Below are positions 1 through 19,270 of a stretch of 64,000 nt of DNA, in pieces. The stretch spans positions 1 through 64,000 of the forward strand of contig CAWHCF010000006.1 of NCBI GenBank assembly GCA_963827655.1, read 5' to 3'. Each line of letters begins with the position of its first letter. Position 1 is the first letter of the stretch. The notes under the pieces are model-generated. The model did not search any database, was not told the origin of the DNA, and saw nothing but the letters and a program-made list of their open reading frames with translations. This DNA comes from an uncultured Acidobacteriota bacterium. Its GTDB lineage: Bacteria > Acidobacteriota > UBA6911. Position numbers and translations under genes: made by a program.

Positions 1-74
1 TTTCAGGCTTCCGATAGGCCGACTGTACGGCCAGGGTTTCAGGCCTTGGTTTTGTGAGCGTCGCTGATGAAGGA

Positions 75-584
75 TTACAGGCCGAAGACCCTCCTGAGCA
101 GACCGATATATTGAGGTCCAGTTGTGATGATGATCGCCGCGAAATAGCCCACGGCCAGCACACCACCCCCAACGAACTGACCCCACTCCGGTCCCCGCGG
201 ACTCCGCTGATAAAGCCAATCGAGCACGCAATGATCAGCAAGAGATGCTCGCCTGCGGCGATCAGAGAAAGCCAGGTCTGGCCTCTTGAGTTGGCCAGTT
301 TGTACCCAGTCGAGCAACTGTTCAACTCCCGCCTTGATAAAGGTGGTCACGAACAGGTTGATATGGTTCCAGAAGGCGGAGATAGATGCAGCCTGCGCCG
401 TAGCCCCAAGCGCTGTTCCTGCGGGTCAGCGCGATTGCCGCGAGTAGATCAAAGCCTGAAGCGAATGCAGGACGCGGATCTTGGGGTCAAATACCGCTGA
501 CACGAACAGGGCGAAAATAAAGAATGCGGCGCCAAGCGTGATTGACCAGCGTATCCAGGCAGGCTCAGCTCTTGTCCTGTCCAT
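75..584 (-). pseudogene. Frameshifted small multi-pass membrane protein
   Basis: Hydrophobic segments continue across frames: MDRTRAEPAWIRWSITLGAAFFIFALFVSAVFDP... (426..584), then ...FVTTFIKAGVEQLL...GGVLAVGYFAAIIITTGPQYIGLLRRVFGL* (75..350). At least two indels are needed to join them. Confidence 0.55.
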
Positions 585-668
585 GCGCTCCACTACGCTC
601 CGGGCATCTGAGAAGTTCCTGCGGAGCGTTCCTGGGATTGGGCCGCTTCGTGCAACTAATAAAGGATT

Positions 669-729
669 CTTGAACAAGGCCATGAAGCTGACCGACTGCG
701 TCGGCGGCTTGTGACCATAGCGTTTAGCT
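669..729 (+). mobile_element. Degenerate integron attC-like recombination site
   Basis: CTTGAAC-AAGGCC-ATGAAGCTG-A-CCGAC-TGC-GTCGG-CGGCTTGT-GACCATAGC-GTTTAGCT. It has an AAC...GTT core pair, an imperfect hairpin with a bulged G, and lies directly before an RBS and ORF. Confidence 0.5.
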
Positions 730-746
730 CAACGGAGGACTGAGCT

Positions 747-1190
747 ATGCAGGTTTACAAACACAGACAGGTTGGGATATTGAGTTTGTTTGCATTGGGC
801 GTCGGCGCTTTGCTGTCCGGCGCGGTCTTAATTTTCGAGCCCGCGCAACCCCTGATGGCTGGTTTGGTCCTGGTGACTCTGTTGTTGTGCATCTTTTTAT
901 TCTGGTCGCTCACTGTTGAGGTGACTGCGGATAAATTGACAGTGTTGTTCGGCCCCGGAGTCATTCGTAAAAGCTTCCGCGTCGAAGACATCCACAATGT
1001 ACGGGTCGTTCGGAATGCGTGGTGGTACGGATGGGGAATCAGGCTAACGCCACACGGTTGGTTGTTCAACGTCTCAGGATTCGACGCCGTGGAGCTGGAA
1101 CTGAAGAACAACCGGAAGTTCCGCATTGGAACTGACGACCCTCAGCAGCTGCTAACAGCAATTCGGCGAGTGTCACAGCCCGACAGCTAA
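747..1190 (+). CDS. Two-TM membrane protein with a bacterial PH-like C-terminal domain; possible gene cassette
   Basis: RBS GGAGG, two TM helices, WYGWGIR...GTDDP motif. The stop codon lies within AGCTAAC. Confidence 0.8.
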   Translation: MQVYKHRQVGILSLFALGVGALLSGAVLIFEPAQPLMAGLVLVTLLLCIFLFWSLTVEVTADKLTVLFGPGVIRKSFRVEDIHNVRVVRNAWWYGWGIRLTPHGWLFNVSGFDAVELELKNNRKFRIGTDDPQQLLTAIRRVSQPDS

Positions 1191-1565
1191 CAACGAATAA
1201 AATTCTCATTCCGGAGACTTACATGGCACGCGAACTTGAGCGTCGATTCGTGGGCCCCGATGGAAGGGTTGTTGTGAACCGTTATGCCGAATGCCGGGTG
1301 CTTCCGCCATCTACTGTTGGTGACCATAGACCACGCGCCGACTGAGGCGGATGTATGGCGGACCTGAGTTCGCTACTCTGATTTGGCCTCCGCAACAATC
1401 GCCTCACCGCATCACTTACCTTGGCGCGTACCTGAACCATCTTCCGGGTGGCTCTCGGCCGAAACCCGGCGGCGTCCGATGTTGGACTTAAGGCGTTCCT
1501 GTGCAATGTGTCTCGACTGCCTCCAGACGGCCAACCAGCGCGGCGGCGTACACCATGACGGCCGG

Positions 1566-2576
1566 TTAGTCGTGCGGCACTGTCATGGCCAGCTTCCGAT
1601 GAATGGCGTCCTGCAACGTGCCCAGATCGGAGCGTGAATAGCCGACGACATCTTGCGTTTGCAAGTCGAAGGGCAACGTGGGCAGGTGCCCGCCGCGATC
1701 GTTCTCGCAAATGAGGAGGGTTGGCTTATAGAGGGCGTGTGCGAGCCCCAGCTCATACATGACGTTCGGATTCTCGCCGGTGATCACGGCCACAGCGCAT
1801 TCGCACGACGCAATGCCTTCACGGATTATCTCTACGACGTTACCAACCAGAGGCAATTCATCGGTTCTGACCGGGATGAGGTTCAGGCTATCGCAGGCGT
1901 TTTTGACAATCCGGTATATCTCTTTGAAGCCCGGAGCGAAAGGCATTGCCACGAAGCAGCGTCTCTTCAGGGCACTGGCTACAAGGTCCTTGACCAGCTG
2001 GGCAGCCGCTCGGACGTTCCCAGCGTCAAGAGGAGTTTCCAGGCGCTGACAGGTCTCCTCGTCGATACGCAGTCTCTTCGCAATGACGTCTTTGTGGTCG
2101 TGCCATTGCTTCTCTGACTTTCCACCCGTAAAGGGGAGAGGCAGCACCGGCTTTTCGAATTCGAGCGCGAGATCGACCATCTCCGGCGTGCCGTGCTCGC
2201 CCTCGATGGTAACGAGGACGTCGGCGTAGCGCACGAGCGCGAACCTCCGAGACTGTCGGGTCACGTTCTTGACCTCATGGATCCTGCCGGCGCGAAAGAG
2301 ACCAGTCGACTCTCCCTTGGGAATCAGCGTCTCGAGCCTCGAGACTTCTGCGATCCCTTTCTCACGGAGGTAGCGCCGCGCGCCCTCGATGATACAGGCG
2401 TCCGCGGCCGGGGCACCCGCTCCCTGCCGACCTCCCGTTACGATGACGAGCCCCTCCTCTCGGGCAAGTTGCTCGCCTAGTAACTCGCAGAAGGTCGCGT
2501 TGAGCGCCGTGATGCGCGACCCACCCACAGCACCAACCCGCCGGGCACGCAAACGATAATCTGCAACGGGCATCAT
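1566..2576 (-). CDS. SLOG domain fused to a nucleoside 2-deoxyribosyltransferase/TIR-like domain; candidate defence or nucleotide-signalling protein
   Basis: N-terminal SLOG motifs IVTGG, RRFALVRYADVLVTIEGEHGT, KPVLPLPFTGG. C-terminal CFVAMPF...NPNVMYELGLAHAL.KP...LPFD. RBS GAGGAGG. Confidence 0.8.
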   Translation of the reverse strand: MMPVADYRLRARRVGAVGGSRITALNATFCELLGEQLAREEGLVIVTGGRQGAGAPAADACIIEGARRYLREKGIAEVSRLETLIPKGESTGLFRAGRIHEVKNVTRQSRRFALVRYADVLVTIEGEHGTPEMVDLALEFEKPVLPLPFTGGKSEKQWHDHKDVIAKRLRIDEETCQRLETPLDAGNVRAAAQLVKDLVASALKRRCFVAMPFAPGFKEIYRIVKNACDSLNLIPVRTDELPLVGNVVEIIREGIASCECAVAVITGENPNVMYELGLAHALYKPTLLICENDRGGHLPTLPFDLQTQDVVGYSRSDLGTLQDAIHRKLAMTVPHD

Positions 2577-2882
2577 AACCTCCTCTAGCCTTGTGGAACC
2601 CGCCCTTTCCCGGGGAGACGCGGTCCACCTCGAGCGGCTAGGTCCCAGGGCAGCGGGAATAGCTGTTCAGGAAATCTACCGAGCTTCTAGCGGGAAATAG
2701 CCAAACCTTTGAATCAACGTCATAATGCTATCCATCCAGCATCTTGATGTCAATTTGGGCGAGATTTCCAGCTTCGACGGGCCATTGCCCCTTTCAAACC
2801 TTTCGCCACGAGAACGAATGTCGCTTAGCGAAACGTTCAAACCAGCATGTTGTCGTTCAGAAGGGGCCCCTGCCCTTCGACC

Positions 2883-3299
2883 TCACCGGGACCCCTGGTC
2901 GAGACCCTTGAGGGCGAGCAGCGCGTGATCGTTATACGAGGTTGAGAACACGATGAGACACTTGTCGTGGCTCGAGAGTGCTGTCGCATACAAATGGTGT
3001 ATGTCGATTCCAGCGGTCTTGAGCTTGTCGGCCAACGCGCGCAGCATCCCAGGTTTGTGCGAGACCTCCGCGATCAGGACATTGCTTTCGCGGGGCTGAA
3101 ACTTCTTCTGGAGGACATCCATGGCCCGCACGTTGTCGTCGGTGACCAGATGGATGACTCCGTCGGCGCCTTCGACCCAGGCGCTGGCCGCCATGATGCC
3201 GATGCCTCGTTCCGAGACGCTCTTGGAAACCTCCGCCATAACCCCGATTTCATTCAGTGTCTTGACAACAATCTCTTTGCCGGTAGTAACTTTTATCAT
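2883..3299 (-). CDS. Tandem ACT-domain protein
   Basis: Two ACT repeats (LNEIGVMAEVSKSV; SHKPGMLRALADKLKTAGIDIHHLY). ATG at 3299 follows GGAGGAG. Confidence 0.85.
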   Translation of the reverse strand: MIKVTTGKEIVVKTLNEIGVMAEVSKSVSERGIGIMAASAWVEGADGVIHLVTDDNVRAMDVLQKKFQPRESNVLIAEVSHKPGMLRALADKLKTAGIDIHHLYATALSSHDKCLIVFSTSYNDHALLALKGLDQGSR

Positions 3300-3612
3300 C
3301 TTGCTCCTCCGTCGTGCGCTGCCTGACTGTAGGGTGGTCCACGGGAGAGTGCCGCAAGAAACGTACGCCCGGACCGCAGGCGACGGCGAGCTGCACGCAC
3401 TGTTGACTGGATATGATTCCAGCGTACCCATCATAGAACACAACGCGGCCTGCACCCGCAAGCAAAGTATGGGTCGCTGCGTCCTGGCGGCAGGCCCTTT
3501 TTGCCCTAACCGCTGACAACACGAAGACGCGGAGAAATAAGATTTGTGACTTGTTCGATGAGGTCGATTACCATCTTCAACACGTGCGGCTCGTCTAGTT
3601 TCAAGGAATGCG

Positions 3613-4095
3613 ATGCGATCAGACGAGAAGTTTGAAGCGTCGTTTCGTAAACCGAATCCTATCGATCGCGCCGTCAACCGGGCCTTTGGATTTCTGGTCG
3701 GGCTCGGTTTTGGCCTGTCCCATAACTACCTGCTTCAGGTCCGCGGCCGTAAGACCGGACGGCTCTATTCCACGCCAATAAATCTGCTGGAGTTCAAAGA
3801 CAAGCGGTTCCTGGTAGCGCCACGAGGCCGGACTCAATGGATCCGCAATGTAGAAGCCGCGAACGAAGTCATCCTCAAGAGGGGAAGGATACGAGCAACT
3901 TTTCGACTCCGGCCAATTCCGGATGTGGAAAAGGCCGAGATATTGATGTCTTATCTGGACCGTTTCAAGCTGACGGTCCAGCGTTACTTCCCCGTGCCCG
4001 CCGGCTCAGGCTCGGAAGCTTTCGTCGAATTGGCCGCGCACTATCCCGTGTTTGAGCTGCTTCCGTCCAACACCAGGGCCTCTCAACGCTCCTAA
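3613..4095 (+). CDS. Deazaflavin (F420)-dependent nitroreductase family protein (Ddn/DUF385-like)
   Basis: LLQVRGRKTGRLYSTP, QWIRNV and YPVFEL motifs. Confidence 0.85.
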   Translation: MRSDEKFEASFRKPNPIDRAVNRAFGFLVGLGFGLSHNYLLQVRGRKTGRLYSTPINLLEFKDKRFLVAPRGRTQWIRNVEAANEVILKRGRIRATFRLRPIPDVEKAEILMSYLDRFKLTVQRYFPVPAGSGSEAFVELAAHYPVFELLPSNTRASQRS

Positions 4096-4127
4096 CCGAT
4101 CCCAAGCGCTCTTTTTGCAAAAAACCG

Positions 4128-4169
4128 TTGACGCGCTGCAATCCTTGCAATACATAGTATGTTGTAATG
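4128..4169 (+). promoter_or_regulatory. Putative promoter with a palindromic (PadR) operator; possibly a leaderless transcript
   Basis: TTGACG at 4128. Near-palindrome ACATAGTATGT flanked by TTGCAA/TTGTAA directly before ATG 4167. No RBS is evident. Confidence 0.4.
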
Positions 4170-4529
4170 TCAAGCATTCATGCCCCTGGTTTTGCGGGAA
4201 AGTGGGAAGTCCAACTCCGAAAGGGTTGTCTCGAGCTCGCCATCCTCGCCAGCCTGTGGCACGGCAAACTCTACGGCCTCGAAATCCTCCGCCGCCTCGC
4301 CGATGGTTCCAATCTTGTGGTCTCCGAAGGAACGGTCTATCCCCTGCTCAACCGCCTCAAGGCGGAAGGACTGATCGATTCGGAGTGGGTCGAGGCGGAG
4401 GCAGGACATCCGCGCAAGTATTACCGACTGACTTTGCGGGGGAGACGCCGCGCGGTCGAGATGGCGCAGATTTGGGAGCGGTTCTCCGGGAGCTTAGGAG
4501 CCCTGGTTGCACCGCTCAGGAAGGAATGA
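4167..4529 (+). CDS. PadR family transcriptional regulator
   Basis: QLRKGCLELAILASL, YGLEI, EGTVYPLLNRL, PRKYYRLT. Confidence 0.95.
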   Translation: MSSIHAPGFAGKWEVQLRKGCLELAILASLWHGKLYGLEILRRLADGSNLVVSEGTVYPLLNRLKAEGLIDSEWVEAEAGHPRKYYRLTLRGRRRAVEMAQIWERFSGSLGALVAPLRKE

Positions 4530-9397: not shown

Positions 9398-12300
9398 TCA
9401 GAAGGTCAGGCGCAGCCCGGCCTGCATGATGCGCGGATCGCTCGTCGCGTCGATCTGGCCGGGCCGCGCGGCTGTAATATTGCGGCGCGGATTCGCCAGG
9501 TTGGCATGATTCAGCGCATTGAACATCTCCCACCGGAACTGCAAGCCCACAGACTCCCGTACCCGGAAGCTTTTAAAAAGAGCGAAGTCGAGGTTCCAGC
9601 GTCCAGGACCGATCAGGCAGTTTCGGCCCGCGTTTCCGTAGCTGCCCAAGGCCGGGAGAGCGAATGCGCTCGCGTCAAAATACTGTTCGATAAGTTCCTG
9701 CCGCGAGCGCCCCGGGTCGAGATGCGGGTCGCCGACCAGGTCAGGCCGCTGCGTGCCGGTCCCGGAGAGCGCTCGGTCCTGACCACTTACAACGGTGAAG
9801 GGCGAGCCCGACTGGATGGTCAGAATGCCGTTGGTCTGCCAACCGCCGAGAATCCATCTCGCCGCGCCCGCCGTTGGCCCCGGTAGCTCCCAGAGAAACG
9901 AGCTCACCCACCGATGGCGCACGTCGAAGTCGGCAAGACCCTTGTCAGCCCGGAGGTTCAGAGGGTCCTGGCCGTTGAAGCCGTCCACCTCAAGCGACAT
10001 GCCATCGATAGCCCGGCCCAGCGTGTAGCTCGCCAGCAAGTGTGAAGCCGCTGCTGAACCGCTTGTTGAGCGAAAGCTGCAACGCGTGGTAGGTCGAGTT
10101 GATTATGTTCTCGTAGCTGATAATGCTCGCGTGCGCGGGAGCGTAGATCCGGCGGGTGTCTATGTTGGCGAGCGTGGCCCCGGCGCGAAAGAGCGCCGGA
10201 TTGAGTTCGCGGCGAATGGGCAGCCGCGCTGCCTTGGAGCCCACGTATGCGGCAGTGAAAAGATAGTCGGGGGCAAGTTCTCTTTGCAGGTTGAAGTTCC
10301 ATTGCTGGTTGTAGGGAGCCCCGTTGAACGGATCCACCGAGAGCCCGATCGTAACCGGCAACAAGAACTGGTATGCGGCGCGCTCCTGCTCGGTGGCCGG
10401 GGGAGAGTATGGGAAAGGATCCGCCCGTCCGGCATATGGATCAGAAAAGCTGCGCGGCTGGTTCACGGTGATCTGAAGCGAGTAGGGTGGCGAGTTGACG
10501 AAGTGGCTCACTTCATGGAATCGAGGGATGTCGAAGAAGATGCCGTAGGCGCCGCGGACACTGGTCCTGGAATCACCGAACGGGCTCCAGGCAAAGCTGA
10601 AACGCGGAGCGACGTTGTTCCAGTCGTTGCGCGAGCCGCCGCGGGGCACACCGGAGTCATTGGCATAGAGCAGCCCGGACGGCGCGGAGGGGAATATTTC
10701 AGACTGCTGGCCGGGACGGAAGACGGTGAGCTCGTCGTCGGCGGAATAGAGGGGAAAGAACGGCTCCCAGCGGGCTCCGAACGAGAGACTCAGGTGCGGA
10801 TGAATCTTCCAATCGTCCTGGAAGTAGAACGAGTAGGTCTGGGCGCGTATCCGGTTGACCCGCACCGAGCCCTGGGTGAAGCGGACCGGGAGGCCGATGA
10901 GGAAGTCGGCGAACGCGTTCCCGGCGAATTGACCGCTGAAGGTGAACTGCGGGTCTACTCCGTTGGCAGTCACGCGATCGCTCTTTGACCAGCGGTATTC
11001 GCCGCCGAACTTGATCATGTGGGCGCCCTGCGTGTAGTTGATCAAGTATGCGGCCTGCTGGGTACGGCGGTCGATCAGGACGAGATTGTCCTGGGCGAGG
11101 TCCCAGTAGCCGGTAACGCCGCCGCGAAATTGTGGAACCAGTTCCTTGCCGAGCGCATCGGCGCCGCCGCGATTGGCGCGCACGCCCATGCTCTGGTAAG
11201 AAACGCCCTCGCCCTCGCCCACCGGCAGCGGACCGCGGTCGATCTGAGACTGATTGAACGTGTACTGGCCGACGGCGAGCAGGCGCGGCGAGAGAATCCA
11301 GCTGTGCTGGCCGCTGACGTTCCAGGTATCAAACTTCACGTCCGAGTGCAGCGAGGGGAGACCGGCCGTCAGAAAATCACTGGCGCTGGTCTCAAAAATC
11401 CGGCCGGTGAGACGCTGGTTCTTGTTAAGACTGTAGTCGACGCGACCCAGGAACTGATCGCTGTCCTGGCTCTCGGGCGGGTTGTAGATGTAGCGACCAC
11501 CGGGAGAGTTCGGCAGTGGAACCTCGAGTTGTTTGAGAAAGTTGACCGCGGCCGGATCAAAACGGGTGGAAGGAATGAGCGCGCCGGGAAAAGGCTGGCC
11601 TGTGGCCGGATCGCGGGGAATCTGGGCGGAAGCCGAGAAATCACCGTTGCGCTCGGCTTCCGTCGGCACGAACAGATTCGAGACGGTGCCGCCCCGGCGC
11701 TCGCGGACGCCTTCGTAAGAGCCAAAAACGAAGGCGCGATTCCGCACCACGGGCCCGCCGAATGTCCCTCCAAACTGGTTGCGTCGCAGCTTGCTCTTTG
11801 AGATGCCGAAAAAGCTGCGGGCGTCAAGAGCGTCGTTGCGCAGGAACTCGAACGCTGAGCCGTGAAACTGGTTGGTGCCGGATTTGGTCACGGCGTTGAC
11901 GACGGCTCCGGAATTGCGGCCGTACTCCGCGCTGAAATTATTGGTCAGGACGCTGAACTCCTCCAGCGCGTCAGGATTGGGGGTCACGGCCGACACGCCT
12001 TCCTGCGGATCGTTGTTGTCGCCGCCATCGAGCAGGTAATTAGTGCCGGTGGCGCGAGCTCCGTTGACAGCGACTCCATTATTCCGGCTGAGACTGCCCG
12101 AAGCCGGTCCCGGAACCACGCCTGGAACCAGCAGGAGCAGTTGAACCGGATTGCGGCCATTCAGCGGCAGCTCGGTGATGCGCCTTTCATCCACGACTTC
12201 GCGGATCGTGCCGGTCACGGTCTCGACCTGCGCCACCGTGCCGGTTACCGTAAGCGACTCGGCCGTGCTGCCGACATCGAGAACGGCCCCGATCTGCCGG

Positions 12301-12644
12301 CTCTGGTCGGCGTCGAGCCGGAACGACTCGGAGACGAACTGGCGGAAGCCTTCCTTGGTGATCCGGACGCGGTAATTCCCGACCGGAAGGCGCGGAAGAC
12401 TGAAGCGCCCCGCCTCATCGCTGAGGGTCGTCCATTCCAGGCCCGTGAGTTCGTTGGTAGCGCGGATCTCGGCGCCGGGCACGAGCGCGCGCGAGCGATC
12501 CTCGACAACGCCTACGATGAGGCCAGTCGATTGAGCGAACAACAGGGCAGGCAATGCGGCCAGAAGAAAGAGAGACGCGAACGGCTTGTCCACGTTAACC
12601 TCCGCAGGATCACGGCCCCCCGATTCGTAGCCGGGATCCGTCAC
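9398..12644 (-). CDS. TonB-dependent receptor with carboxypeptidase-regulatory-like N-domain (Oar-like), frameshift near 10040
   Basis: ELPLNGRN, EEFSVLTNNFSAEYGR, TKSGTNQFHGS, APRFSFAW. C-terminus PRIMQAGLRLTF is in the second frame (9398..10039). Confidence 0.9.
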
Positions 12645-14740: not shown

Positions 14741-14998
14741 ATGGCAAAGCTCATTGTCGAGTTGCCTGATGAGATCCACCGGGAACTGAAGAAGACCGCC
14801 ACGCTTCGTAACCTGACGCTAAAGGAAGTGGTAACGGATCTGGTCAAGGAGTATCTGGCGCGCGCAGAAAAATCGGTCGCTTCAGCAGGGACAGGTCTGT
14901 GCGGAAGTTGGGAAGATACGAGAACTGCTGCTGCCATCATCGCGGACATCAGGAAACACAGAAGCTGGTTAAAGCAGCCACGAAAGAAGGTCGCCTAG
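14741..14998 (+). CDS. Ribbon-helix-helix antitoxin (VapB-like)
   Basis: MAKLIVELPDEIHRELK RHH pattern and GLCGSWED tail. The stop overlaps the PIN toxin start. Confidence 0.8.
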   Translation: MAKLIVELPDEIHRELKKTATLRNLTLKEVVTDLVKEYLARAEKSVASAGTGLCGSWEDTRTAAAIIADIRKHRSWLKQPRKKVA

Positions 14999-15396
14999 TG
15001 CCCAAATATGTTCTGGACACCGATACCTGCATCTATTGGCTCAATGGGGACCGGAACATTGAGAAGAAGATTCTGGCTGCGGGCCTTGAAAATGTTTTTA
15101 TCACCGCCATCACGGAGTGCGAACTCTATTACGGAGCTTTTAAATCCTCAAGAGTTGAGAAAAACGTCGAGGTTCTGAAGGAACTGCGCCGAAAAGTCAA
15201 AACACTCCACACCTCAGCGGAAGTTGCTCCCCTCTACGGACGTATCAAGACAAACCTCGAGCGTGCAGGCCGAGTTCTGGATGACGCTGATCTTCTGATT
15301 GCCGCCATAGTTGTCGTTTCCAAGGGGATTTTGATCACAAATAACACGAGTCACTTCCAGCGCATCCCAGATGTAGAGCTAGAAAACTGGAAATGA
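14998..15396 (+). CDS. vapC: VapC PIN-domain toxin
   Basis: GTG start; YVLDTDTCIY, ITECELYYGA, DLLIAA, LITNN.SHFQRI..VELENW. Confidence 0.93.
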   Translation: MPKYVLDTDTCIYWLNGDRNIEKKILAAGLENVFITAITECELYYGAFKSSRVEKNVEVLKELRRKVKTLHTSAEVAPLYGRIKTNLERAGRVLDDADLLIAAIVVVSKGILITNNTSHFQRIPDVELENWK

Positions 15397-15459: not shown

Positions 15460-18400
15460 TCAGAACAGGAATCTCAGCCCGAACTGCATGACCCTGGGTC
15501 CGCCCACCGTGTTCAGCACCTTGCCGAAGTCCGTGGTGTCCTGCAGATCGTTTGCGGGAATGGCAAAATTGACGTTGTTGAAGACGTTGAAGATCTCCCA
15601 GCGAAACTGAAGGCCCAGCCTCTCGCTGAAGTTCGTGGTTTTGGAGAAGCTGACGTCAAAGCGTTTCTGACTGTCGGCGCGCAACACATTTCTCCCAAGA
15701 TTTCCGAATCCGCCTAATGGGGAGACCAGCAGATCCGAGTTGAAGAACCGCTCGGTGGGGTCCTCACCCTTCTGGGCCAACTGATCGATCGTGCCATTGA
15801 GACTCGGCCTCCCGAACCCCAGCCGGTAGAGACCGCCCGATCCGCGCACCAGAGTGCTCAAGTGCGCCGGCGCCTGTGCTTCCGGTTCCGCGCTGAAAAT
15901 TGAGAATGGACTTCCGGTCTGGACCTGCGCGAAACCGGCGATTTGCCACCCCTTCAGCAACCTCGAATTAGAACCGGCTGTCGGCAGGTCATACACGAAG
16001 CTCGCGCTGAATCTGTGAGCGCGATCGAAGTCAGAAACTGCCCGATTGGTGCCGAGGTTCCTCTGATCTCCCTGGACCACAAAGCCAACGTTAGGAACAT
16101 CAGGCTTCCCGCCGCCCGACGTACTGCCGGGATCGGCCGAGCTGTTGTCGAGCGATCTGGACCAGGTGTAAGACGTGTTGAATTGAAACCCTCGGGACAT
16201 GCGCTTGGTCAGGTTAAGCTGCAGCGCGTGGTAGATCGAGTTCGCCGAAGACTGCAGCAAAACTGCCTCAGGTATATTAAAGCCCAGTATCGGTCCGCGC
16301 GATTCGAATGGAATGATCACGGTATCATTCACGTTTGCCGGCAGGCGGCTCAAGTTATAATCCACGGCCGCGCCGGTCACCGAATTGGGAAATCCGAATG
16401 CCACACCCTGGCCTCTGGCTCGCTCAGTCGAGCCTGATTTGAGAGGACCTGCAAGAACGTTCGGGTTTCCTGTCCGCGCAAATTCTGCCTGATAAGCGGC
16501 CTCGTAGGCCCGATTGAAGCGTCCGAATATGGAGTCGGGCGTGCCGGGATCGTTGAGATCGTAGCCCTGATTGAAAGCGGTCGCCTGCAAGAGTTTCGTC
16601 CCCTTGGTCCCGAGATATCTTGCCTCGATCAGAAGATCCTTCGAAACCTCGGCCTGAAAACCAAAATTCCACTGCTGAATGTAGGGCGTTTTGAGATTGC
16701 GGTCGATGGAGCGAAACTCGAAAGTTTCGGCCACGTTCCCCAGCGCGGGAAGACCCGTCACCAGATCGACGGCATTCAACGAACCGTCCGCCCCGCGCGT
16801 AACCCGCGTTCCATCGCGAATCACGTAAGTTCCATTGCTCTGGTAGACCAACCGGTTGGGTAGATACTGGTTGAAAGGGAAATTAGGATCCTGCTGCGAA
16901 AATGCGGTGGATAGAGGCACCGCCCTCGACGGAGCCGTCACTTCAACTTCGCGCAAGAAGGGGTAGTTGCTGAAAACTGTATTCATGAATGCCGCAGAAG
17001 GACGGTCGTAGAAAATACCGTAGCCGCCCCGAATAACCAGGCGGTTGCTGCCAAGCGGAGAATAGGCGAATCCAAACCGGGGCTGTAGATTGTTCAGATC
17101 CTGCCCGTTCAGCGTGTGCTTGTTGCTCGACTTGATCGACGCCGCGATCGCGCTGTCGATCGCGCTGAATCCGGTGTTGGTGACATTGCTCGGGACGATA
17201 AAACCAGGACCCGGATTTTCCGGATTGGTCATGGCGGCAAAATCAAAGTTGCCGATGCGCCCGTCCTGCTTCTGTGGGCCAGCCAAACCAGTCCCAGCGG
17301 ACGCCGATATTCAGTGTCAAGTTGGGCTTGATCTTCCAGTCGTCGGCGATGAACCAGCCCACGTCAGCCATTCGGAAGCGCTTGTCTGTGATTCCAAACT
17401 GAGTGTCGGCCTCGGTCGCGAGACCGGCGAGAAACTGGGTAAAATTTTCCCACTTTTCAAATTCCGTCGCCTGTTCTTCAGGAAGGTTCGTATCATAAGC
17501 GTGCCGCTTGTACTCGACGCCCATGCGAAGGGTGTGGGATCCGCGCAGCCACGAAACCTGATCCGAAAAACTGAAGGTCTTCTGATCTCTCAGATTGAAA
17601 GAATCATTGGGGCCGCCCCAGGAAAGGTTCGAGAGGTTGTTTCTGAAAACATAATGGCCCAGGCGTGTGGCCGCCTGACTCTGGTCGTAGAAATTAGCCG
17701 GATTGGGTATGCCGACGGACTCGTTGGTAAGGGCAAGAAACGGATCGTCGAGCCGGCGAGTATTATTCAGGAAGAAAAATCCAACCCTGGCCTCGTTGAT
17801 GACGCTCGGGCTGAAAGTATGAACGTCGGATACGGCCAGAGTCCGGGCGCGATCGTTCCGGCGCAAAGTGACGGGAGAGGCCAGGCTCGAAGGATCCGGA
17901 AAGGAATCGAGTCCCGGGAAATTGCTGAAGAAGAAAGTGCCCGCAAGCTGGTTCTTGGAACTCACCTGGCCATCGAGCCTGGCGGTAAACTGATCCTGCT
18001 CGAATTCGGAAGGAAAGACATTGCGCTGGCGAATGAGAGGATTTCCGCCAATGATTCCACTGATGGTCTGGTCTCTTCCTACGGGGAAGCCGCCGGCTGC
18101 CGTGGGCGCGGGAATCAAGAAGTCTCCGGTCACAGGATTCTGTACATTCAGCAGGCGAATCGCAACCGGCGAGATCTGGGCTTCAGTGAGGGGAAACTCC
18201 GGATTGAGCGACCTGAAGGCAGCCGCGACATTGGCTGCGGTGCGGCTGCCGCTGATAAGTCTCAAGGCCTCGGGCAGGACCGTGATACTCTGCGCGGTCG
18301 GCACAAAAGCCGTATGGGCTTGGGTTCGTTGATAGCCGCCGAAGAAGAACACCTTGTCCTTGATCACCGGCCCGCCTACGGAGAACCCTCCTTCATTACG

Positions 18401-19270
18401 GCGAGCCCGGGGCCGGTCGATTCGATCCTTGTTGTAAAAGAAATCGTTGGCATTAAAGACCTCATTCTGCACGTACCAGTAAGCAGATCCGTGCAGACTG
18501 TTGGTTCCATTCTTGGTGATCAGCTGGAAGTTGCCGCCGCCGGAGCGGCCGGTTGAAGCGTCGTAGAGACTGGTCTGAAGTTTTACTTCCTGTAAGGTCT
18601 CGGGGGCCGGGGCAATATTATCAGTCAACGAACCCTCGTTAGAGGAAAGGTTGGTCGCATCTATTCCATTGAATTGAAGACTCGTGCTGGTTGTGCGCGT
18701 CCCGTTTACCGACGGAGATATGTTGCCGTTGCCGTTGGTCAGCACCGGGGGAAGATCCGCGCTGATTCCGGCTTCGGCTGACAGGAGGTGAGTGAAACTT
18801 CGTGTCGACGTTGGGACCTGTAGAAGCTCCTGAGCATTGATCTGGCGGAAAGTTGATGCGGTATTGGGAGTGACCAGAAGCGCATCCGATGTAACGTTAA
18901 CGGTTTCACTGCCGCCGGATACTTCGAGACGGGCCTCGGCGGTTCGAGGCACGGCCGCTTCGACCGCCACGCCGCTGTGGACCAATTTCTTGAATCCAGT
19001 GAGTTCGTAAGTTATCTCGTAGTTACCAACCGGCAGAGCGGGAATGGCCCAACGCCCTGCGTCATCCGTGGCGGTCGAACGGTTCAGGCCTGTATCGACA
19101 TTCCTCAAAGTGATGCTGACACCGGGCAGCATCGCGCCGGTCGTATCTCGAACAACGCCGTTCAAGGTCCCTGTGGTGCCGGACTGGGCCGAAGCCGTCA
19201 GCGCCGACACAAGAAACGCCAGACAAAAGAATGAGAGCAGCAACGTATTGGTTCGAATACCGGCACGCAT
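15460..19270 (-). CDS. TonB-dependent receptor (Oar-like), frameshift near 17270
   Basis: Signal peptide, carboxypeptidase-regulatory domain, QEVKLQTSLYDASTGR. Second frame carries LQPRFGFAY and PRVMQFGLRFLF. Confidence 0.9.

Follow-up and report, generated by a model that had tools for sequence, protein, structure and literature searches.

A candidate Thoeris-type effector joining a SLOG and an NDT-like domain in an uncultured Acidobacteriota bacterium

The gene at 1566..2576 on the minus strand of the window (the whole 64,000-nucleotide stretch of DNA that was analysed) raises the question of whether a single protein can serve as a complete nucleotide-signalling defence system, as a first-pass annotation proposed when it described the product as a SLOG domain fused to an NDT/TIR-like domain. 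In the ORF list this region is a single ORF of 336 aa with an ATG start, and the following features were assigned to it and to its upstream region.

1566..2576, minus strand: coding sequence of the SLOG–NDT-like protein, 336 aa, stop codon included (ORF list; Pfam, PADLOC and NCBIfam scans; AF2 model; homologues)
2579..2584, minus strand: ribosome-binding site AGGAGG, ending 2 bases upstream of the ATG (read from the sequence)
2725..2753, minus strand: sigma-70-like promoter site TTGACA-17-TAGCAT, 10/12 (consensus scan)

The promoter site was taken as a weak indication only, because the consensus scan returned 4 sigma-70-like sites in positions 1-4500, where shuffled sequences gave 1.9 on average. 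In the scan for terminators, the sequence had fewer sites than its shuffles, and a 91-nt stretch around a short repeat folded no better than shuffled sequences (z 0.61). Two RNA libraries from a single study yielded contigs that covered positions 1721-2015, 2288-2438 and 2513-2662 at 97-99% identity; such contigs may reflect DNA carry-over or derive from a close relative, and the uncovered parts carry no meaning. Public sequencing runs recovered small shares of the window stretch.

Only 1.5 kb separates the gene from the contig end, so one of its flanks is only partly visible. Among the 18 ORFs scanned in positions 1-20 kb of the window, no TIR, Sir2 or cyclase gene was found, nor were SLATT, restriction-modification or other defence genes or any retron parts; the neighbours encode an ACT-domain protein, an F420H2 quinone reductase-like protein, a PadR protein, a CPBP protease and a glyoxalase. 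The isolation noted in the first-pass annotation is thus real at this locus, with one flank cut by the contig end.

The AlphaFold2 model of the 336-aa protein (mean pLDDT 95.0, pTM 0.89) contains two alpha/beta domains, the first of which is the following.

1965..2549, minus strand: N-terminal SLOG domain, residues 10-204, predicted ligand sensor (PF18306; VIA-align; Foldseek; conserved residues)

In the Pfam scan, this domain scored 34.2 bits with PF18306 (SLOG cluster 4), above the cut-off of 26.3, although the label alone says little, because the model is broad and also matches 13 of 14 control genomes. In the structural comparison of residues 10-204 with VIA-align, the closest match was the SLOG domain of BcThsA with 3'cADPR (7uxs_A; Z 19.0, rmsd 3.1, 175 residues aligned), followed by TM1055 (1rcu_A, Z 18.9), a Moco carrier protein (2iz5_A, Z 18.2), SeThsA (7uxt_A, Z 17.5), DprA (Z 16.0) and LOG (Z 14). 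Foldseek matches for the same domain ranged from 1e-6 to 1e-5, with E values of 1.4e-6 for 1rcu and 1.9e-6 for 7uxs, so that the domain-by-domain AlphaFold-Foldseek comparison suggested at the outset does match the N-terminal half to SLOG folds, ThsA included. In the alignment of the family (A1), residues G48 G49, R110 R111, G126, G129 and P146 are conserved. The LOG motif is PGGxGTxxE, and in our own reading of the alignment the column matching its Glu is not conserved. Cap17-like_N (PF18178) gave a weak match (E 0.0048; 16.7 bits, below the cut-off of 26.6). STALD matches were found in three homologues, all below the cut-off, the window protein scoring as cluster 4. A word-indexed search with the N-terminal domain alone returned 6 close relatives and no new architectures. 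The same SLOG domain is fused to a true TIR_2 domain (80.5 bits) in the protein P0243.

The second domain carries two short conserved segments.

1569..1964, minus strand: C-terminal NDT/DNPH1-like domain (DrHyd, TIR-like fold), residues 205-336, predicted N-glycosidase effector (A2 profile; VIA-align; PF05014 below threshold; PADLOC)
1938..1958, minus strand: CFVAMPF, first strand of the C-terminal domain, residues 207-213 (conservation; model strand)
1746..1772, minus strand: NPNVMYELG motif, residues 269-277, with the codon of E275, the predicted catalytic nucleophile, at 1752-1754 (invariance in A1; alignment to DNPH1/Rcl)

The best structural match of residues 203-336 was MilB (Z 14.2), followed by NDTs (Z 13.9 and 13.4), and the TIR domains, at Z 12-13.5, were on par with the NDTs. 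A profile of the domain (A2) searched against the PDB found DNPH1/Rcl (E 1.5e-7) and NDT (E 2.4e-5). In the Pfam scan, the window protein reached 22.4 bits with PF05014 (Nuc_deoxyrib_tr) over residues 252-295, below the cut-off of 28.8, which several homologues passed (34.6, 34.7 and 32.4 bits, for example). The PADLOC 'TIR effector' model matched residues 256-310 (E 2.5e-7) and the precomputed Pfam label for the C-terminal domain of the homologue P0056 is TIR_2; the TIR models of Pfam (PF13676 / PF01582) had no match to the window protein at E<=10.

The segment NVMYELG was aligned on GVGYELG of DNPH1/Rcl, with E275 opposite the Glu of that motif, which we take to be catalytic. N271, V272, Y274, E275 and G277 were invariant in all 48 rows of A1, although this invariance is partly circular, because the rows of A1 were obtained by a word-indexed search and those of A2 by a scan with the motif itself. 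C207 and M211 were nearly invariant in A1, and the model places a strand at 205-210. The first reading of the protein as a SLOG domain joined to an NDT/TIR-like domain that retains the putative catalytic Glu was therefore correct for both halves. The same NDT-like domain is fused elsewhere to GAF, TPR and S1 domains, so it works with many input modules.

Homologues of the window protein were found at 98%, 74% and 59% identity, and at least 102 representative clusters matched it at E<=1e-30. None of 40 related genomes carried the gene at E<=1e-20, and in a sample of 401 genomes of the phylum the full-length gene was present in two, the window's own genome (G000) and G380, a number too small for statistics on co-occurrence. 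One homologue lies on a conjugative plasmid among IS elements, and the copy in G380 is surrounded by ordinary genes. The gene is thus accessory and patchily distributed, in line with the accessory setting given in the first-pass annotation; the cassette-like nature of the region is putative.

With a self-built TIR profile, a TIR gene was detected within 4 kb at 13 of 47 SLOG–NDT loci (11 of them exceeding the Pfam cut-off), whereas for other NDT-like proteins the same profile found a TIR neighbour at 2 of 110 loci, plus two fusions. Pfam TIR_2 alone was found within 4 kb at 6 of 23 genome loci (10 of 123 ORFs) and at 5 of 18 metagenome loci, that is, at 11/41. These counts overstate the number of independent events, since the carrier loci are mutually related and the TIR-linked rows cluster in two clades. 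The other 34 of the 47 loci have no TIR neighbour, and they include the window's own clade (the window and L001) and an entire clade of 13 rows. TIR genes were also present at 4-10 kb (4 of 139 ORFs, in L005, L006 and L024), so that strict operons do not account for all of the adjacency, part of which stems from TIR-rich islands.

Where they adjoin, the TIR and SLOG–NDT genes often share a strand and are separated by 11-200 bases, which is the two-gene layout of Thoeris. The gap is 11 bases in L104, a 2.8-kb contig that holds this pair alone, 17 bases in L020, where the TIR gene follows the SLOG–NDT gene, 50 bases in L005 and 84 bases in L100, and at least two TIR genes are present at L005, L017, L020, L024, L098 and L100. 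When 271 neighbour ORFs were clustered, the TIR clusters were the only ones common to loci not otherwise syntenic; no cyclase, CD-NTase or other signal generator recurred beside the family, and no CD-NTase was found near any homologue locus examined. The first-pass annotation had named a setting in conserved nucleotide-salvage operons as evidence against a defence role, and no such operon recurred among these 271 ORFs. Restriction-modification genes were found near homologues at 3 of 23 loci (PADLOC, E<=1e-10, uncontrolled scan), and PADLOC detected few specific defence genes besides these and TIR among 123 neighbour ORFs, so that the association with defence genes, TIR apart, is modest. Proteins of the RelA/SpoT-like and RyR-domain types recur near homologues (L003, L017, L020, L024, L097 and L101). 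Neighbour clusters in the Atlas, reached through the homologue P0004, carry PF18178 and provide leads only.

The carrier genomes are also unusually rich in TIR genes. The window's genome had 31 TIR_2 matches, compared to 0-4 in 40 relatives without the SLOG–NDT gene, and G380 had 13; both were among the 10 of 401 phylum genomes with at least 10 scored TIR matches, counts in this sample being lower bounds where ten were scored. Ten carriers without an adjacent TIR gene had 8, 4, 11, 6, 6, 18, 0, 2, 14 and 4 matches, a series to be read with the matched control covering the relatives of the window's genome and the phylum only. The carrier G047 (2.3 Mb, completeness not given) had no TIR_2 match.

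Two loci with very similar gene orders illustrate how effectors may be exchanged. L100 carries, in order, QueF, TGT-like, Ogg, QueC, ThsB_TIR, SLATT, SLOG–NDT and TIR genes, and mirrors an operon of a Rhizobium plasmid with the order TIR, QueC, HhH-GPD, TIR, kinase, NDT-like+TPR-S, DUF4231 and TIR, the SLOG–NDT protein standing in place of the NDT-like–TPR-S protein. The NDT-like domain of the latter is 35% identical to the C-terminal domain of the window protein over 103 aa (pairwise E 9e-15). Eight other NDT-like+TPR loci (L028, L035, L039, L060, L061, L072, L078 and L079) had no TIR neighbour by the self-built profile, which may miss divergent ThsB-type TIRs. Thoeris operons with cap9/10/11 have been reported (10.64898/2025.12.03.692087).

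The architecture had at first not been recognised as any characterised system, but it proved to lie near three of them: ThsA, the SIR2-SLOG effector of type I Thoeris, the SLOG-containing effector of type III Thoeris and ThsI of type VIII, which joins a 'CMP hydrolase' domain of the NDT superfamily to TPR (10.64898/2025.12.03.692087). In ThsA, as in the window protein, a SLOG domain that presumably receives the signal is fused to a catalytic effector domain; its SLOG domain is among the top structural matches, and SLOG–NDT homologues adjoin TIR genes. The domain order is reversed, however, with SLOG at the N-terminus in the window protein, and the effector is NDT/DNPH1-like instead of SIR2, the Pfam scan including no SIR2 family. 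In addition, the window SLOG domain scores as Pfam cluster 4 and not as STALD, the sequence match to ThsA is weak (E 0.3), and an adjacent ThsB (TIR) gene is lacking among the 18 ORFs of the window locus and at most family loci, being present at 11-13 of 47.

The likeness to ThsI lies in the enzymatic domain, which belongs to the same superfamily: the best match of the window domain, MilB, is a CMP N-glycosidase, and the related Rhizobium protein is ThsI-like and lies among TIR and DUF4231/SLATT genes. In contrast, the window protein has SLOG instead of TPR/TPR-S as its sensor (the Pfam scan included no TPR family), and the domain order is not the same. The signal of ThsI is cADPR, and the comparison covered architecture and context. 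The effector of type III Thoeris, ThsD (van den Berg et al. 2024), was compared by description only: it is described as a SLOG-containing effector with several TIR partners, a review assigns its SLOG to the SMF/DprA type, and several SLOG–NDT loci have two or more TIR genes, so the SLOG–NDT family may or may not be ThsD. PADLOC-DB 2.0.0, of 2023, predates the type III Thoeris paper. The family may also be among the 29 putative effector types of the preprint by Yirmiya et al.; PMC13069673 contains nothing on SLOG.

Among more distant systems, Cap17 of CBASS also has an N-terminal domain of SLOG type followed by an effector of the nucleotide N-glycosidase type, in its case a PNP ATP nucleosidase, whereas the effector of the window protein is NDT-like, its match to PF18178 is below the cut-off, and the Pfam scan included no PNP family. 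DNPH1/Rcl, the nucleoside 2-deoxyribosyltransferases and MilB share the fold and the YELG Glu motif with the window protein, but they are stand-alone metabolic enzymes of about 150 aa, and the window protein falls below the PF05014 cut-off. In NDT/DNPH1, a Tyr of the first strand is described as hydrogen-bonding the catalytic Glu and conferring 2'-deoxy specificity (PMC11204291). In the window protein, the conserved Cys207 before the first-strand Phe would occupy this place, a positional match drawn from the pattern, as the HMMER alignments of A2 to DNPH1/NDT stop short of that strand. NDT-like effectors are also known from defence, as in the retron protein RcaT, and NAD+ hydrolysis has been linked to Retron-Eco1, with an inactive E107Q control (10.64898/2026.10.13.758329). 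The type II retron effectors, with an NDT-like and a DNA-binding domain, are thus similar as NDT-like defence effectors acting on NAD+, but it is a reverse transcriptase–msDNA complex, and not a fused SLOG domain, that controls them.

From these comparisons, we lean towards reading the SLOG–NDT protein as a Thoeris-like effector, an N-glycosidase that a signal activates and that would serve in cell suicide or growth arrest. The N-terminal SLOG domain would be the receptor for an alarm signal, a small molecule derived from a nucleotide; the likeliest candidate is a derivative of ADP-ribose that TIR-domain proteins produce upon detection of a phage. Once bound, the signal would switch on the NDT/DNPH1-like domain, probably by altering the oligomeric state, and Glu275 would cut the N-glycosidic bond of NAD+ or of a nucleotide, draining an essential metabolite until the growth of the infected cell stops. 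The window gene is an orphan with its own promoter-like site and no TIR gene beside it and, if used, would be driven in trans by at least one of the approximately 30 TIR proteins encoded elsewhere in the genome. The part of the original proposal that joined a sensor to an effector fits the contexts of the homologues, whereas no supporting evidence was found for a polypeptide that both makes and senses the signal. A self-contained one-gene system cannot be upheld as a trait of the family either, given the TIR genes within 4 kb at 11/41 loci by Pfam and at 13/47 by the self-built profile.

The one-gene idea could still apply in another form, which we consider unlikely, as a sensor-effector independent of TIR, whose SLOG domain would sense a different nucleotide (a CBASS- or Pycsar-type signal, an alarmone or a metabolite made by the phage or under stress) and switch on the N-glycosidase. 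It would accommodate the 34 loci without a TIR gene within 4 kb and the TIR-less carrier G047, as well as the promoter-like site and the RBS that the window gene has to itself, and it agrees with the recurrence of RelA/SpoT-like and RyR-domain proteins and with the fusion of the NDT-like domain to GAF, TPR and S1 elsewhere. SLOG domains also serve other kinds of signalling, to which PF18178 points both in the window protein and in the Atlas neighbour clusters, although the score of the former is below the cut-off. However, the TIR clusters alone recur among otherwise non-syntenic loci and no signal generator does so, the TIR adjacency exceeds that of other NDT-like proteins (13/47 against 2/110), and the carrier genomes are TIR-rich. 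The last feature would also suit a regulator, in which SLOG would bind a TIR-made signal and the N-glycosidic cut would destroy it. TIR signalling would thereby be dampened or reset, much as type III CRISPR signals are by ring nucleases, and a TIR-rich genome would be shielded from self-activation. We regard this as improbable. The TIR clusters of L100 and L017 already include a SLATT-type effector of their own, so SLOG–NDT is not needed there as the killing module, and a role in degrading cADPR-type signals has been proposed for the SLOG domains of viruses (PMC9503650). On the other hand, no other effector was recognised in L104, whose contig is too short to exclude one, or in L020, rare operons with two effectors that answer one signal have been reported, and ThsI, the related NDT-like+TPR protein, is activated by cADPR and toxic when this is supplied (10.64898/2025.12.03.692087).

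Just as little weight is given to an ordinary enzyme of nucleotide metabolism, with LOG-like or DNPH1-like hydrolysis in salvage or in the clearing of modified nucleotides and no role in conflict. The superfamilies of both domains include housekeeping proteins (LOG, PpnN, DNPH1, NDT and MilB), PF18306 is present in 13/14 control genomes, the neighbours are ordinary in the window and in G380, and contigs of RNA libraries cover parts of the gene at 97-99% identity. Such an enzyme is hard to reconcile with a very patchy spread (0/40 relatives, 2/401 in the phylum sample), with the lack of a recurring salvage operon, with the enrichment of TIR genes beside the family, with a plasmid-borne homologue among IS elements or with the sister architecture P0243, which has a true TIR domain.

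If the Thoeris-type reading holds, SLOG–NDT would be the NDT/'CMP hydrolase' effector in a version with a SLOG sensor, a further module showing how freely sensor and killer domains are swapped, and as a compact and confidently modelled protein of 336 aa it could be used for studying how SLOG gates an N-glycosidase. Of greater interest, roughly three in four of the family genes, including that of the window, lie away from TIR genes yet in TIR-rich genomes. A speculative extension, to which we attach a low probability, is that SLOG–NDT acts as a shared hub effector, with many dispersed TIR sensors making one diffusible ADPR-type signal for a single unlinked executioner, by analogy with the many plant TIR receptors that converge on EDS1 and helper NLRs. 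The location of most family members away from TIR genes would follow from such a hub, which would constitute a bacterial many-sensors-to-one-effector TIR network and not a one-operon Thoeris unit. If the orphans are indeed driven in trans, bacterial TIR signalling could be organised genome-wide, beyond self-contained operons, and this would affect the prediction of defence systems from gene neighbourhoods.

The SLOG–NDT gene is a single long ORF in the ORF listing, and reading of the surrounding sequence revealed the following signals:

1566..2576, minus strand: SLOG–NDT ORF, 336 aa
2 bases upstream of the SLOG–NDT ATG, minus strand: ribosome-binding site AGGAGG
2753-2725, minus strand: promoter-like site TTGACA-17-TAGCAT, within the 306 bases that separate the SLOG–NDT gene from the ACT-domain gene upstream

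The contig end lies 1.5 kb from the gene (the window being G000:C6:1-64000). RNA-library contigs from two soil libraries of one study matched window positions 1721-2015, 2288-2438 and 2513-2662 with 97-99% identity. Since DNA carry-over is possible in these contigs, they weakly support transcription of the gene or of a close relative. A dispersed 47-bp repeat (2822-2868) was also detected just past the stop codon of the ACT gene, upstream of the SLOG–NDT promoter-like site. It has at least 41 matches within its own genome, G000, this copy included (89-100% identity; 40 of 77 candidates scored). In soil metagenome contigs its depth is very high, and both of its sides have loose ends. The 91 nt around the repeat folded no better than shuffled sequences.

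When the 336-aa protein was scanned with Pfam, SLOG cluster 4 passed its cut-off (34.2 vs 26.3), Nuc_deoxyrib_tr stayed below threshold (22.4 vs 28.8) and Cap17-like_N gave a faint match. The PADLOC 'TIR effector' model also matched (E 2.5e-7), and the NCBIfam scan returned TIGR00725 weakly and nothing else. An AlphaFold2 model built from a 48-row alignment of full-length homologues (A1) reached a pLDDT of 95.0 and a pTM of 0.89, and split cleanly into two domains, which were assigned by exhaustive structural comparison. Residues 10-204 resembled the 3'cADPR-bound SLOG domain of BcThsA (Z 19.0, rmsd 3.1, 175 aligned), with further matches to TM1055 (Z 18.9), Moco carrier protein (18.2) and SeThsA (17.5). 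For residues 203-336, MilB (Z 14.2), NDTs (13.9 and 13.4) and TIR domains (13.5 to 12) were tied within about 1 Z; Foldseek results were concordant. A profile of the C-terminal domain (A2) matched DNPH1/Rcl at E 1.5e-7, NDT at 2.4e-5 and Cap12 TIR at 0.12, with NVMYELG aligned on the GVGYELG of DNPH1/Rcl, and judged by its sequence the domain belongs with DNPH1/Rcl and NDT. Therefore, from the Pfam SLOG match, the structure, the profile and this motif alignment, the first-pass annotation was correct in reading a SLOG domain joined to an NDT/TIR-like domain that retains the putative catalytic Glu.

A word-indexed search recovered 309 proteins at E<=1e-3; among the 120 matches listed, about 70 align over most of the length. 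The number of 50%-identity representatives matched by exhaustive HMMER was 10,824 at E<=0.001, 1,318 at <=1e-10 and 102 at <=1e-30. Named carriers include Planctomycetota, Acidobacteriota, Bacteroidota, Myxococcota, Chloroflexota, Actinomycetota and one Nitrososphaerales archaeon, and a conjugative Rhizobium plasmid carries one homologue amid IS66 and IS6 elements. The SLOG–NDT gene is accessory; it was found in none of 40 related genomes at E<=1e-20, and among 401 phylum-sample genomes only G000 and G380 had a full-length match, the other 14 matching genomes having the C domain only.

No defence-like gene was found near the SLOG–NDT gene in the window. Its neighbours encode a small membrane protein, an ACT-domain protein, an F420H2 quinone reductase-like protein, PadR, a CPBP protease and a glyoxalase, none of which recurs beside homologues (271 neighbour ORFs clustered). 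A 584-bp stretch (491-1074) is duplicated with 94% identity at G000:C33:47908-48499, near the end of that contig; in the window it includes the beginning of the 147-aa membrane-protein ORF (747-1190) together with the region upstream of this ORF. Elsewhere in the window, two TonB-dependent-type outer-membrane receptor genes (9398-12644 and 15460-19270) each seem to consist of two overlapping ORFs, matching successive parts of OMP_b-brl_4 (1-622 and 622-838; 1-400 and 395-838); the splits could stem from frameshifts or sequencing errors, or the genes could be pseudogenes. Phosphate-transport genes on one side and an outer-membrane receptor gene on the other enclose a PIN-domain ORF (14899-15396), which may encode the toxin of a toxin-antitoxin pair.

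The flanks of homologues, up to 4 kb from the gene, were analysed with crude ORF calls that kept the longest non-overlapping ORFs of 90 aa or more. TIR_2 proteins were detected at 6 of 23 genome loci (L005, L014, L017, L019, L020 and L024; 10/123 ORFs) and at 5 of 18 metagenome loci (L098, L100, L101, L104 and L137), and when the 271 neighbour ORFs were compared all against all, TIR proteins were the only clusters common to otherwise non-syntenic loci. With our own TIR profile, built from 22 neighbour TIR domains and applied to all ORFs of L001-L173, a TIR was found within 4 kb at 13 of 47 SLOG–NDT loci, L006 and L007 being the weak ones and L007 falling under the Pfam cut-off. With the same profile, other NDT-like proteins had a TIR neighbour at 2 of 110 loci, plus two fusions, the flanks scanned amounting to 242 kb for SLOG–NDT loci vs 612 kb for the others. 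The pairs are often on the same strand, separated by 11 bases at L104, 17 at L020, 50 at L005 and 84 at L100, or by larger gaps at L098 (about 140) and L024 (about 160), and the partners range from small TIR proteins to TIR–NB-ARC–WD40 and FHA–kinase–TIR proteins. TIR genes were also present 4-10 kb from the homologue at L005, L006 and L024 (4/139 ORFs); therefore, some loci are TIR-rich islands. In the homologue tree, computed without L015, L017, L018 and L109, most TIR-linked rows belong to two clades, and no TIR link was found in one 13-row clade nor in the pair formed by the window and L001 (support 98/97).

Other defence genes near homologues were modest: restriction-modification at L002, L008 and L014, SLATT at L017 and L100, CHAT plus caspase at L106 and NB-ARC at L111. 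At L017, L020, L024, L097 and L101, large proteins that end in a RyR domain are encoded about 10 kb or less from the SLOG–NDT gene, several of these proteins also having a RelA/SpoT or TrkA_N domain; the L003 flank encodes a RelA/SpoT protein without RyR match. Two metagenome loci that are related to each other have a histidine-phosphatase-superfamily gene (L114:3215-3850 and L115:1474-2133) directly at the SLOG–NDT 3' end or overlapping it. Large phosphofructokinase-domain proteins near two homologues (L006:5164-8037 and L007:14954-17131) each gave a weak match to our TIR profile, that of L007 having a sub-threshold N-terminal TIR_2 in Pfam (20.7 bits).

At the genome scale, G000 has 31 TIR_2 matches, 30 over the cut-off, in 8.2 Mb, and its 40 relatives have 0-4 each, with any in 17 of them. 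Ten carriers whose gene has no adjacent TIR have 8, 4, 11, 6, 6, 18, 0, 2, 14 and 4, and G380 has 13, none near its SLOG–NDT gene. TIR_2 matches were present in 123 of the 401 phylum-sample genomes, a tally that takes in two unpublished genomes (G195 and G073), and only 10 of the 401 attained 10 matches, the maximum that was scored per genome, G000 and G380 both among them. TIR-rich carriers are consistent with trans-acting TIR partners, as a correlation across few and related genomes. The TIR expansion in G000 is striking, with long TIR-bearing ORFs of up to 1231 aa. This genome also has a 292-aa NDT-like–TIR_2 fusion (G000:C48:821-1699, L082; NDT-like 24.7 bits, below cut-off; TIR_2 64.8 bits), and an NDT-like match about 1 kb from a TIR_2 gene (G000:C49:387022-388746; L083, L090).

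Thoeris systems offer several parallels. As described in a preprint that counts 29 putative effector types (10.64898/2025.12.03.692087), type III combines several TIR proteins with a SLOG-containing effector, type VII has a SLATT effector, the type VIII effector ThsI joins a 'CMP hydrolase' domain to TPR and is activated by canonical cADPR, and some operons contain cap9, cap10 and cap11. Relatives of the window's C domain are in many cases fused to TPR, TPR-S/MAP3K_TRAF_bd, GAF, S1 or TIR_2. A Rhizobium-plasmid NDT-like+TPR-S protein (L175, NZ_CP013502.1), 35% identical to the C domain over 103 aa, neighbours a DUF4231 (SLATT-type) gene, three TIR genes, QueC and an HhH-GPD glycosylase. The order at L100 is QueF, TGT-like, Ogg, QueC, ThsB_TIR, SLATT, the SLOG–NDT gene and TIR, the same layout, and thus the SLOG–NDT protein occupies the place of the ThsI-like protein. 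These TIR/SLATT operons with QueC, TGT-like, QueF and Ogg/HhH-GPD genes (L100:1781-8211 and L175) resemble the cap9/10/11-containing operons of that preprint. Retron RcaT effectors are a precedent for NDT-like domains acting on NAD+ in defence (10.64898/2026.10.13.758329), and Aravind and colleagues described the kinship of TIR, DrHyd and SLOG domains and put forward DrHyd domains as NADase effectors (PMC9503650, PMC7159879). In another protein, P0243, the SLOG domain of this family is joined to a true TIR_2 domain (80.5 bits), and Atlas neighbours, taken as leads only, include STALD–TIR and LDcluster4–TIR clusters.

In A1, no conserved residue corresponds to the Glu of the LOG motif (PGGxGTxxE), which speaks for a sensor role of the SLOG domain over an enzymatic one. 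This domain would bind a TIR-made ADPR derivative, the most likely ligand, and binding would switch on the predicted C-terminal N-glycosidase, in which Glu275 would be the nucleophile and NAD+ or a nucleotide would be cleaved. A conserved Cys207 appears to take the position of the NDT and DNPH1 Tyr, which has been linked to 2'-deoxy specificity (PMC11204291). The first-pass observation is confirmed and its interpretation partly supported: the sensor-effector idea holds, but not that of a new one-gene system. The family resembles Thoeris-type effectors, with genes that are in many cases encoded apart from the TIR partners, and it may already be among the predicted Thoeris effectors.
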